Made by a program: the position numbers and the translations under genes. The notes below the pieces were generated by a model. The model did not search any database. It saw only the letters and a list, made by a program, of their open reading frames with translations, and was not told where the DNA came from. Of a stretch of DNA of 64,000 nucleotides, positions 11,925 through 48,906 are shown piece after piece. Source of the stretch: an uncultured virus (IMG/VR IMGVR_UViG_3300038345_000393) (lineage: Duplodnaviria > Heunggongvirae > Uroviricota > Caudoviricetes); IMG/VR virus record IMGVR_UViG_3300038345_000393; one strand, written 5' to 3'. The number at the start of each line of letters is the position of its first letter. The first letter of the stretch is position 1.

Positions 11925-12280
11925 GAAAAATAAAAACCATCCACAATGAAAACACCACAATGTAGTTAACGGATGGTACTTCATTCCAACCAAACTTAAC
12001 TACTGGTGTTACATCCACTCCTTGGATGGCCACATGCTCAATATTGCTATTGTGTGGAGCGTAGAACTATACCCCCATCTAGACCTTGTCCCACATCAGG
12101 GTGGAGAGTTATCTAAGATTACTAATATAGCCCCTGGGCGATACTTTCCACATTGGTAGAAGCTAACACACCTCCTACCAGATTAATTGGCTGGGTTCAG
12201 ACTTCGTTTTAGTCAAGTTTACACCTACTCCAGAAGTATTTCATTCTTCGGTCTTTTGGCGCGGCATCTGACCATGCATT
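11925..12280 (-). ncRNA. candidate ~350-nt structured RNA or regulatory leader
   Basis: GC-elevated intergenic stretch with many helices (12154-62/12172-80, 12039-52 with GCAA loop on - strand, 12012-17/12023-28) ending in a terminator-like stem 11936-42/11971-77 and T-run. Confidence 0.55.
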
Positions 12281-23308: not shown

Positions 23309-23335
23309 TCCATCATTTTTAATAATGGTTTATCA

Positions 23336-23870
23336 TTGTTGTGCATTGGAACCCAGTGTATGCCATCTTGCTGATGGCTGGGGCCCAACCAAGTAAGGCA
23401 ATAATGTGGGATACTGCGTTAAAGTCAAGACCTCGTTAGTAATAACTAGGTATTCGGAACTAAAAAACCGCTTTGGTTGGTGGCGCGATACGCTCTTCGA
23501 TGTAAACAACTACCTGATAGGCACGACAAGTGGCTCCGTAGAAATACGTCCCGCGTCCAGATGTTAGGCTTGAGAACCTAATATCTCCGCTCTCGAAACA
23601 AGTGTTCGCTTTGATGGATGGTAACATCCTATAACTGTTTGGTAGGTACCATTAGGAGAACAGCGATATTTGATCAATAAATGAGAATATCATCTGCTGA
23701 AGCTCTCTGAAGGTTGGAAGGCAATTCAGATCCTTCCCTAGGTTACGGTTAGTAATAACCCATTCTGGAAGTATGAGGATCGCTACCTCTTACTCAGCCC
23801 AGCGTGCTAGTGTGTGAATAACAAATTAGAGTAAGTGTTGTAAGGTGAAGGCCTCCGATGCCTTTTTTAT
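23336..23870 (+). ncRNA. large ornate structured ncRNA candidate (~530 nt)
   Basis: GC-rich, no credible ORF, four GNRA-capped hairpins, long-range closing helices, AATAAT -10-like element upstream, terminator at 23848-23868. Confidence 0.75.
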
Positions 23871-23886
23871 TAAGTGAGGTATTAAA

Positions 23887-44696: not shown

Positions 44697-44789
44697 ATTC
44701 CCATCGTTCAAGCTTTAGCACCTTACTACGATTTAGCAGGTTGCTGGTGGATCTCTGGGCTTGTCCCTAACCACTCTCTTTATGGATAT
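44697..44789 (-). promoter_or_regulatory. SAM-I (S-box) riboswitch, short-P4 variant
   Basis: - strand: CCATAAAGAG-AGTGGTTAGGGACAAGCCC-AGAGATCCAC-CAGCAACC...AAGGTGCTAA...GATGG follows the SAM-I layout. Confidence 0.88.
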
Positions 44790-46919: not shown

Positions 46920-47513
46920 TTAAATACCTACCTTACTTGTGACATAGATGAGAAGATAATTGTTTAAAACATTAATCTCTTCTCTAGGACCATCTCTTCT
47001 TTCATTAAAGATGATTTCAAAATCATTATTTGGAACGCGCTTAGGTGAAACAGCGCACACGATTTTATCGTATTTACCCACTAAACGTTTACTTGGAATG
47101 CCTTTCGCTCTCGCACATAATCTAAATCTTTTTAAATATTCTTCTGATATGAAGCTCGCTAATTTAGTTAAATAGAGGAGTTCTTCAGGGTCAGCATAAA
47201 CAATATCGATACCAAGTCTTAAAGCATCGTTAAATAAGATATCTTTACTATGCTGTTTAGAAAGTAATTTATCGTAGTTATATTCAGGACGAACTGCCTT
47301 GTTGATGAACAAAGAATCCATCACAGATAAACTTGGAAAGTAGAATTTAACTTTTTCATCTAATTCTTGAATTAAGTTAACCGCGAAAGCGACATATTGA
47401 TTCCAGCCTCTTTCTTCAAAGAGTTCTAATTCTTCATTGATTCTATCTAATTCTTCTTTTGAATTAGGAAGAGTTAAAACTCTTTCTTTAATTTGTTCAA
47501 ATGTCTGTTTCAT
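46920..47513 (-). CDS. protein resembling a fragment of DNA Pol III alpha (start re-called to 47513)
   Basis: DRINEELELFEERGWNQYVAFAVNLI parallels the DnaE/PolC RLxxELxxIxxxGFxxYFL helix; GGAGG RBS. Confidence 0.45.
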   Translation of the reverse strand: MKQTFEQIKERVLTLPNSKEELDRINEELELFEERGWNQYVAFAVNLIQELDEKVKFYFPSLSVMDSLFINKAVRPEYNYDKLLSKQHSKDILFNDALRLGIDIVYADPEELLYLTKLASFISEEYLKRFRLCARAKGIPSKRLVGKYDKIVCAVSPKRVPNNDFEIIFNERRDGPREEINVLNNYLLIYVTSKVGI

Positions 47514-47652
47514 ATTTCTTCCTCCTTTTATAACTACCTTTACCCTTTTTGGGTTTATAAATGTTGGCCCTAGTTGTCTTTTGGACTTCAAAGTGCATCT
47601 TATTGGGTAATTTAGTTTGATCCACTTTGACTTTGATTACTTCTTTCTTCAT
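47497..47652 (-). CDS. 51-aa ArfA-like peptide (not in ORF track)
   Basis: MKKEVIKVKVDQTKLPNKMHFEVQKTTRANIYKPKKGKGSYKRRKKYETDI; GAGG RBS; KKGKGSYxR motif. Confidence 0.65.
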   Translation of the reverse strand: MKKEVIKVKVDQTKLPNKMHFEVQKTTRANIYKPKKGKGSYKRRKKYETDI

Positions 47653-47661
47653 AAGCCCCTC

Positions 47662-48084
47662 CTACTTTAATTCACATAGTTCTTTATATACTTTGTTATA
47701 GACAAATTGATTAGGCGTGTATTTATAATTAGCGAATACGTTAATGCCTTTATGAGCGTATCTTTCTAAGATAGCCGCGGCTAAACCTGCACTTCTTGAG
47801 ATACCATAGTCACATTGACAAATAATATCTTTTCCTTCTTTTACCTTTTGATGAACGTATTTAGCGATATCTTTAGCTTCAGGAAGAATGGAATCGTAAT
47901 GCTCTTTAACTGTGGTATATGGTCTAATGTCATAAAAAACTACTTTAAAGACATCAGTGCCTTTAGGAAAATCTAAGAATTCATCTTCTTCATCAGCGAA
48001 AGACACTATTGCAGTGTTCTTAGGTAAGGCATTCTTTTCGAACAAGCGATATAAATGCGCTTTAGATAAGATTGTTATTTTCAT
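47662..48084 (-). CDS. PTP/dual-specificity phosphatase-like protein
   Basis: CX5R loop CDYGISRS and C-terminal PNQFVY. Confidence 0.85.
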   Translation of the reverse strand: MKITILSKAHLYRLFEKNALPKNTAIVSFADEEDEFLDFPKGTDVFKVVFYDIRPYTTVKEHYDSILPEAKDIAKYVHQKVKEGKDIICQCDYGISRSAGLAAAILERYAHKGINVFANYKYTPNQFVYNKVYKELCELK

Positions 48085-48099
48085 AAGATTCTCCTTTAT

Positions 48100-48378
48100 A
48101 AAGGGATATAGACTAACCGTACCATCTATATCAATTTGGTTTTTATTAGTGAGTAATAAATTAAGGAACTTTCATATAACTCACATAATCTGTAGCCTCG
48201 TAAGGCTATTATGACTCCCACTACCGACGCGCAGTCGTAGGTATTAACCTTATAACCGAACATACATAATCCACCACGTAATCTTGCCTTAAAAATCGGC
48301 CGATCCTCATGCTTATGCATGCCACTTCCCTTATGAATAGGGAAACACTAATCTATATGGTCACTAACCGGGTTTAAT
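48100..48378 (-). ncRNA. candidate ~280-nt structured RNA downstream of the coiled-coil gene
   Basis: Series of hairpins, CGGTTAGT at both ends, three GATTA(C/T)GT repeats. Confidence 0.6.
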
Positions 48379-48387
48379 TATTAATTA

Positions 48388-48906
48388 CTAATTTTCTGAG
48401 TAATCAATTGATGATGTTAAGTTGGTCTTATCGACCGCCACTTGTAGAGAACTTAATTCTCTTTGATAATGTCTTAAGTATTCTTTCGCCATATTGATGT
48501 CGAACATCGCTTTTGTGAGTGATGAGCTGGCACTTCTATAGCGATCATACGCATAAGCACCGTTTTTAGTCATATTAGTTAAGACTTTAATTTCGCCTCT
48601 GAGTTCAGCGATTCTCACCAAGCCTTCCGCTATAGTGAAGTTGTAACCACTGACTTTTTGTGAGTTATTGAACTCATTGAGCACTTTTTTAATTCTTCTT
48701 TCTTCTTCGTGAAGAGCTCTAACACGATTCCTGTTTTCCTCTAAGTTATAGTTAGATGGATATAATGGGACGAGTGTACTCACCCCATCTTCACGACTTT
48801 CCGTCACAGGAACGAAGGATTTCTCTTCGTCCTCTTGATGGATAGCATTGATTTCTTCTTCAATGTACTTGAGCTTTTTCATAAGCTCGGTTGCGCTTAT
48901 TTGCAT
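48388..48906 (-). CDS. DIP1984/DUF6847-like coiled-coil protein
   Basis: IKKVLNEFN...FTIAEGLVRIAEL...LQVAVDKTN pattern. Confidence 0.55.
   Translation of the reverse strand: MQISATELMKKLKYIEEEINAIHQEDEEKSFVPVTESREDGVSTLVPLYPSNYNLEENRNRVRALHEEERRIKKVLNEFNNSQKVSGYNFTIAEGLVRIAELRGEIKVLTNMTKNGAYAYDRYRSASSSLTKAMFDINMAKEYLRHYQRELSSLQVAVDKTNLTSSIDYSEN

Follow-up and report, generated by a model that had tools for sequence, protein, structure and literature searches.

An undescribed RNA-protein module: a DIP1984-like gene and a knotted, probably ring-closed RNA behind its stop codon

Structured RNAs that accompany a single protein family have been described as the drum, skipping-rope and DUF3800-I to -XI motifs, which are orphan RNAs of unknown function and often carry 3' terminators (Weinberg et al. 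2017, PMC5737381, in the part of the text available to us). In the Bacillus subtilis trp leader, TRAP is an 11-mer ring that works on 5' leaders with 11 GAG/UAG motifs separated by 2-3 nt spacers and needs tryptophan (PMC3913778, available part). Type III toxin-antitoxin systems (ToxIN, CptIN and TenpIN) combine an upstream RNA of ~35-nt tandem units, a terminator and an endoribonuclease protein (according to the accessible text of PMC5086642). On the protein side, the closest described relatives are the DIP1984/DUF6847 proteins (NF038048 and PF20935; PDB 3kdq from Corynebacterium diphtheriae), a family of unknown function that has its fold in common with the protein described here and matches it weakly by profile. 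We found no RNA partner of this family in print, nor any literature by its family accessions, including cd12208 and IPR047741, which we take to be further labels of the family. In the partly accessible literature, DIP1984 led only to an Acinetobacter outbreak, DUF6847 to nothing and 3kdq only to unrelated work, and none of the matches listed for septicolysin and RNA is about such an RNA. The files searched in the supplements of PMC8040213 and PMC10690425 gave no match, two and three files respectively lying outside the search. No description of the RNA was found in a literature search that left aside some supplementary files and subscription journals.

We have analysed a 64,000-nt stretch of DNA (the window) and found in it a real, undescribed RNA-protein module, consisting of a protein gene and an RNA behind its stop codon on one strand. 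Rfam 15 gave no match at 48085-48390, where the best local match scored 23 bits against a gathering threshold of 50, and none on the RNA across 56 loci. The parts of the module are as follows.

48388-48906, minus strand: divergent DIP1984/DUF6847-like gene, coding for a 172-aa helical protein, a predicted antiparallel homodimer
48105-48372, minus strand: structured non-coding RNA, ~268 nt, starting 15 nt past the stop codon
48369-48371, minus strand: 5' anchor CCG, the 5' strand of pseudoknot PK1 (partner CGG, 48119-48117)
48361-48368, minus strand: P1 5' strand, pairing with 48152-48145 and closing the entire repeat region
48348-48356, minus strand: P1b 5' strand, pairing with 48164-48156, conserved within the window's clade
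48308-48344, minus strand: two lineage-variable hairpins, TTCCCT/AGGGAA and CATGC/GCATG
48176-48283, minus strand: array of seven G(A/G/U)UUA/GUCA motifs, proposed as protein-binding sites
48145-48152, minus strand: P1 3' strand, pairing with 48368-61
48138-48144, minus strand: A-rich linker AAAAACC, in which ACC (48140-48138) is the 5' strand of pseudoknot PK2 (partner GGT, 48123-48121)
48105-48132, minus strand: 3' hairpin P2 (helix 48132-24/48113-05)
48123-48114, minus strand: P2 loop, holding the 3' strands of PK1 and PK2

Judged from the single sequence, the case for an RNA is weak: the 306-nt intergenic stretch folds with a z score of -1.22, and 10 of 100 shuffles fold equally well. Comparison of homologs confirmed that the observation is real and the RNA clearly non-random. 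The 53 loci fetched and the window made 54, from which five duplicates and two loci without downstream DNA were removed; some of the remaining 47 are near-identical, and the named relatives are mostly uncultured Bacilli or Firmicutes MAGs. A fixed parser with the frame 5' CCN, P1, loop region, P1', AAAA(A/G)C and P2 with the loop (A/G)G(U/C)..NGGU(U/C) recognised the same frame in 43 of these 47 distinct loci, where P1 of L001 and P2 of L026, L032 and L033 were set by hand and P1 is uncertain in L001, L048 and L050. The initial annotation had claimed a structured RNA right behind the stop of the gene, forming a module with the protein, and had pointed to the regions downstream of homologs as the place to check it. 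These regions do share a structure, and gene and RNA travel together: all five held-out loci, fetched later, also parse, with PK1 fully Watson-Crick in four, and none of 219 control stretches behind other long ORFs does. As for the four unparsed loci, L037 has by eye all elements plus an inserted hairpin, in L051 the contig stops behind the linker and so truncates the RNA, that of L038 (1984-2410) is GC-rich and ~420 nt long, with the same motifs, many additional hairpins and an altered 3' hairpin, and in the distant L052 (E 3e-12) no such RNA was seen.

The paired positions covary. Of the 474 cells in a 17-sequence clade alignment, 92.6% are paired, and both sides have changed in 18 of 28 pairs; none of 500 shuffles matched this pairing score and slid controls reached 29-40%, the pooled shuffle scores being inflated by the relatedness of the sequences. 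PK2 occurs among the 43 RNAs as ACT:AGT (19), ACC:GGT (14), GCT:AGC (7) and in imperfect form (3). The variable pair of PK1 is Watson-Crick in 38 of 43, against 17.4 after permutation, in a count that allows two registers in C runs, and both knots were recovered automatically in 37 of the 43. When these changes were mapped on the protein tree, whose long branches make deep joins unsure, PK2 changed on two branches and PK1 showed four pair types, of which CCA:TGG arose twice. A covariance model of the 17 sequences found only three further loci and missed the compact clade, so that homology across clades rests on our own parser; no second RNA model was made because MAFFT misaligned the 3' ends of the compact and mixed RNAs.

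These comparisons argue strongly, at the level of sequence, for an RNA folded as a closed ring, in which P1 joins the ends and a double pseudoknot ties anchor and linker into the P2 loop. From the 5' CCN anchor and P1, the RNA runs through a loop with motifs and variable hairpins to the AAAAAC linker and the 3' hairpin P2, whose loop pairs both with the linker and with the 5' anchor; its ends, 48372 and 48105, are placed from this structure. The residues CC, AAAAC, GU and GGUU of the knot are invariant, and the inner hairpins differ freely among relatives. P1, P1b, P2 and both pseudoknots make up the actual frame of the RNA, which the initial annotation had missed. The motifs that it did list were all recovered on the minus strand where it had placed them: a 5'-end element CCGGTTAGTGACC (48371-48359) and a 3'-end element ACGGTTAGTC (48120-48111), the hairpins TTCCCT/AGGGAA (48344-39/48331-26), CATGC/GCATG (48321-17/48312-08), CTACGAC/GTCGGTAG (48240-34/48228-21), TAGCCT-TACG-AGGCTA (48208-48193) and GTGAGT/ACTCAC (48184-79/48154-49), and the strands TAGTCTATAT (48115-06) and ATATAGATTA (48358-49). 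Of the hairpins, GTGAGT/ACTCAC is not conserved, ACTCAC being present in only 3 of 17 clade members; this strand also overlaps the true closing helix.

The ring contains ~7-9 short UUA-type motifs, of the G(A/U)UUA type and 6-9 nt apart. In the window the seven motifs start at 48283, 48271, 48257, 48249, 48215, 48190 and 48180, and the array is broken by the hairpins at 48240-48221 and 48208-48193. The three GATTAYGT repeats noted earlier were found (48283-76, 48271-64 and 48190-83, minus strand) and are members of this array; three such repeats occurred in none of 5000 shuffles, but 10.6% of shuffles contain one 7-of-8 pattern or another three times. Across the RNAs, GTTA, GATTA and TTAT are enriched. 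The most frequent spacings of the motifs are 6-7, 13 and 20 nt in the compact clade and 9 nt in the window's clade, where 14 and 23 nt also stand out for TYA. Counts of the motif lie above the shuffle mean in all 29 representative RNAs, reaching p<=0.05 in 18 and no individual significance in the other 11, for a motif selected from the same data.

We consider the protein a divergent member of the DIP1984-like family, as its modelled fold supports, though it stays under both family cut-offs. The claim of DIP1984 likeness is supported at the level of fold. On the one hand, the 172-aa ORF scored 21.6 bits with NF038048 (curated cut-off 70) and 17.1 bits with PF20935 (cut-off 27), reaching neither. 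On the other hand, a structure model built from 144 homologs (pLDDT 97) had 3kdq as its sole clear structural match, with probability 1.00 and TM 0.71 by Foldseek and with Z 13.3 and rmsd 3.2 over 152 aligned residues by VIA, where the next match had 8.5. The identity to 3kdq is 13-14%, in a subfamily of ~165 aa. A precomputed PF20935 label stands on 4 of 30 close homologs, and a 29-sequence profile of the protein reached 464 cluster representatives at E<=0.001 and 3kdq itself at E 0.007. With PADLOC, none of the families matched above 2 of the 144 homologs.

The initial annotation had also called the protein an oligomer, and self-association is indeed predicted: a four-copy prediction gave a homo-oligomer score of 0.72, against 0.00 for the best control, with at least 89% of contacts shared between runs and a pLDDT of at least 85. 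Of 30 solved homo-pairs, 20 attain the mark used, as does 1 of 23 single chains; likeness to 3kdq may account for the pass. The interface named by the model joins two chains only, and no ring or filament interface appeared in the four-copy model. Outside this dimer interface lies a conserved polar patch (K10, K13, N80, T91, Q155, D159 and N162), in which K10 is kept in 97%, N80 in 99%, Q155 in 94%, D159 in 97% and N162 in 99% of homologs; considering the order of the helices, these residues would meet at one tip of the helical bundle. The net charge of the protein is -3, and only 6% of the 144 homologs are positive; accordingly, non-specific RNA binding is not favoured. It is plausible that the putative oligomer binds the repeats.

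Immediately ahead of the gene on its strand, a 73-codon ORF (49118-48897) follows AAGGAG with an apparent ATC start that is kept in all seven loci compared; it has no Pfam match. Farther upstream, an inverted repeat GCACAAAA...TTTTGTGC flanks a hairpin (49192-49151, minus strand) and is kept in seven loci with a variable centre. It scores as terminator-like and may be an operator, perhaps, as a guess, that of a WYL-type regulator. Beyond it on the minus strand lie an HslV/proteasome-beta-like gene without clear family score (50020-49367) and, adjoining it, a SpoVK/EccA-type AAA ATPase (51109-50039). Elsewhere the window holds a COG3943 RNA motif (11952-12063, minus strand, 86 bits), a SAM-I riboswitch (44698-44788, minus strand, 54 bits) that precedes an LRR_5 gene region and is present in L017 too, and a ROOL RNA (23328-23874, plus strand, 204 bits), 24 kb from the module. 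A ROOL RNA also lies ~90 nt upstream of the DIP1984-like gene and on its strand in the related pair L048 (820-1403) and L050 (818-1402).

The gene is patchily distributed, with 1 of 158, 27 of 251, 2 of 121 and 7 of 300 genomes carrying it in samples that overlap and consist of incomplete genomes. No RNA was found without the gene, the RNA model having matched a gene-bearing genome only (1 of 151 and 1 of 121 genomes) in a shallow test that scored 13-17 candidates per genome and in which both matches were training sequences. Among viral contigs, phages and plasmids, a search of limited sensitivity by protein or by 3'-end pattern gave no relatives. In flanks of 1.5-3.5 kb, where 111 proteins of 119 clusters were scanned, there is no obligate neighbour gene across loci; recurring neighbours are ADP-ribosylglycohydrolase (seven loci), Macro, WYL, AAA/M41, Schlafen-AlbA, HNH and phosphoesterase genes, and many copies lie amid the housekeeping genes polC, secA and aldolase. 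Contigs from rumen RNA runs, which give neither strand nor level and may include DNA, cover the RNA in all four runs from four studies, two of them without mismatch, and one contig bridges gene and RNA. In runs X2 and X8 only the RNA is covered, in 3 of 30 bins and by mismatch-free contigs at 48116-48323 and 48180-48331, a pattern not used as evidence of abundance because missing cover elsewhere proves nothing. Runs X1 and X5 cover 19 and 18 of the 30 bins and share three variants (48332, 48335 and 48337), all in the loop of the TTCCCT/AGGGAA hairpin. A promoter scan was uninformative, with 11 sites against 18.9 expected.

Considering these results together, we think it likely that the gene and the RNA form an RNP. 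The RNA would derive from the 3' end of the mRNA that encodes the protein, and its knot would fold just outside the terminating ribosome and shield both RNA ends from exonucleases, giving a stable RNA. About four dimers may read the motifs through the conserved polar patch, lined up on the ring, and the RNA would hold the oligomer in a particle of fixed stoichiometry whose state may change on cleavage or loss of the RNA, as through RNA damage or phage, in a setting of accessory stress or conflict islands. Taken as a whole, a two-part RNA-protein module with a restraining scaffold is on balance our probable explanation; restraint as the particular role of the RNA is a tentative assignment and rather doubtful. 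A bolder reading, possible at best, is a new class of bacterial RNP, in which a ring-closed RNA, locked by its knot exactly where the terminating ribosome ends, templates counted coiled-coil dimers translated from the same mRNA, as an RNA-integrity sensor or RNA-restrained effector that serves stress responses or phage defence.

The position of the RNA relative to the stop codon suggests the best of the other explanations. Of the 42 RNAs whose anchor is defined, 20 have it start 7-8 nt past the stop, as do all five held-out loci; in the window the distance is 15 nt, and nowhere is it below 7 nt. Behind control ORFs, the first CC lies at 7-8 nt in 4 of 150 and below 7 nt in 10 of 150. A 7-nt floor is about the edge of a terminating ribosome, by the geometry of its footprint, and the spacing may set no more than a minimum or may reflect a functional coupling. 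A terminator-like hairpin (-10 kcal/mol or better) directly follows 13 of 43 RNAs, seven of which then face a convergent polC. The RNA could accordingly be a cis element, whose knot caps or stabilises the 3' end of its own mRNA and whose array lets the protein control decay or termination and recycling, with no free RNP. The invariable place of the RNA, on the same strand and directly behind the stop, would suit such an element, as would the hard floor, the terminator-like hairpins and the contig bridging gene and RNA. We nevertheless hold it to be unlikely, since the closed ring joins the 5' to the 3' end as in a free RNA and the protein would be left without a job beyond self-regulation. Readthrough into the RNA is unlikely to be the purpose either, as in-frame stops follow after 0-159 codons without pattern.

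The knot itself might be a catalytic or nuclease-blocking device, self-cleaving or xrRNA-like, that frees or protects the RNA and makes the repeats secondary. Its compact double pseudoknot, with the invariant residues, and the fixed short spacer could be read in this way, but its strand order differs from that of the HDV, twister and pistol ribozymes, and no Rfam ribozyme model matched at E 10 in the window RNA or at E 1 in 20 loci. Ties to a single family and 3' terminators are also unusual for self-cleaving RNAs (PMC5737381, available part), and we regard such a device as quite improbable.

The initial annotation had proposed a switch: on binding of the protein, the 3' strand would change partner, from P2 to the 5' end or the reverse, and thereby regulate two genes downstream.

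47662-48084, minus strand: dual-specificity-phosphatase-like gene (Pfam DSPc E 3e-6, under the cut-off)
47497-47652, minus strand: ArfA-like small gene (Pfam ArfA E 1e-4, under the cut-off)

We rejected this switch as very improbable. The window copy does have two pairings of near-equal energy, -8.9 against -8.8 kcal/mol, with an RBS 8 nt farther downstream, but this RBS is outside both pairings, and the alternative pairing of 10 bp is private to the window copy (1 of 43). It shrinks to 3-8 bp in the other 42 RNAs, among them L010 (5 bp) and L017 (4 bp), two of the closest relatives, and only in 4 of 43 RNAs is it at least as strong as the local helix; the test for a riboswitch or expression platform thus found no conserved mutually exclusive pairing. 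The next gene also varies: the phosphatase comes next in only 5 of 43 loci, a different gene comes first downstream in L010, whose protein is 92% identical, and 13 of 43 RNAs have terminator-like ends, with seven loci facing polC. Phosphatase and ArfA-like genes are variable passengers, and the phosphatase is outside the module.

That there is no RNA at all, only a small ORF (48320-48126, 64 aa) or chance hairpins, is scarcely credible, for although the folding score is poor and the ORF exists, the ORF cluster occurs in the window and L010 only, indels of any length and compensatory pairs speak against coding, covariation contradicts chance, and no control parses.

If the preferred reading, a two-part RNA-protein module, is true, a structurally solved protein family without known function gains an RNA partner, and bacteria gain an RNA class that combines a tiny conserved knot and a periodic motif array with a ring free to evolve. 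An RNA that counts or aligns protein subunits is rare among bacterial RNPs, and the knot may be a new device for protecting RNA ends. With a small protein, a short RNA and defined point mutants (knot pairs, motifs, polar patch and 7-nt spacer), the idea is directly testable.

Downstream of the canonical DUF6847 genes of L054-L060, the DNA is unmatched by the RNA model and holds other shared words. Behind those of L054-L059, ~200 nt carry GAAT towards the 5' end, TACC..GACATT towards the 3' end and a G-rich tail, which suggests a different structured RNA; six canonical downstream regions gave no consensus fold. Judging from sequence comparison, the window RNA appears to be a separate class or a far variant, and since the canonical downstream sequence differs, the family seems to use several RNA classes. 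Deinococcus radiodurans, one of the control genomes, has a DUF6847 gene above the cut-off and would be a tractable host.

Several described systems resemble the module in part. Like TRAP (PMC3913778, available part), it would have short motifs spaced out in a row and read by an oligomer, but here with a predicted helical dimer, 6-9 nt spacing and a knotted, closed RNA behind the protein's own gene. Nor is there a conserved downstream operon as for a TRAP-type attenuator, the next gene varying and 13 of 43 RNAs having terminator-like ends. With type III toxin-antitoxin systems the module has in common a patchy distribution and a single gene with a pseudoknotted repeat RNA that is probably co-transcribed (PMC5086642, in its accessible text). 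In contrast to them, the RNA lies downstream in all 43 parsed loci, with one knot and motifs of 4-5 nt, and the protein, with 3kdq as its one clear structural match and no nuclease fold found, has no Pfam or PADLOC match to the ToxN/CptN/TenpN endoribonucleases. The Ro60 (Rsr) system with Y RNA and YrlA likewise places an RNA beside its protein gene and joins the RNA ends by a long stem round a large loop (PMC4201824, available part), whereas the window RNA is 2-3 times longer and has a double pseudoknot and a repeat array. The 111 neighbour proteins scanned include no TROVE/Ro60 or RtcB, Rfam gave no match to a YrlA or tRNA-like domain, and ARAGORN found no tRNA in the window. The module thus fails the defining tests of TRAP, type III toxin-antitoxin and Y RNA systems. 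By analogy, the nearest precedent in the available text of PMC5737381 would be the drum, skipping-rope and DUF3800 motifs, where several RNA structures serve one protein family. They accompany another protein family, lie on either side or strand and have Rfam models that did not match the RNA, whereas the window RNA lies only directly 3' on the same strand. Among the several RNA classes that the DIP1984/DUF6847 family seems to use, the one found here brings in the CCN/AAAAC double knot and a spacer rule of 7 nt.
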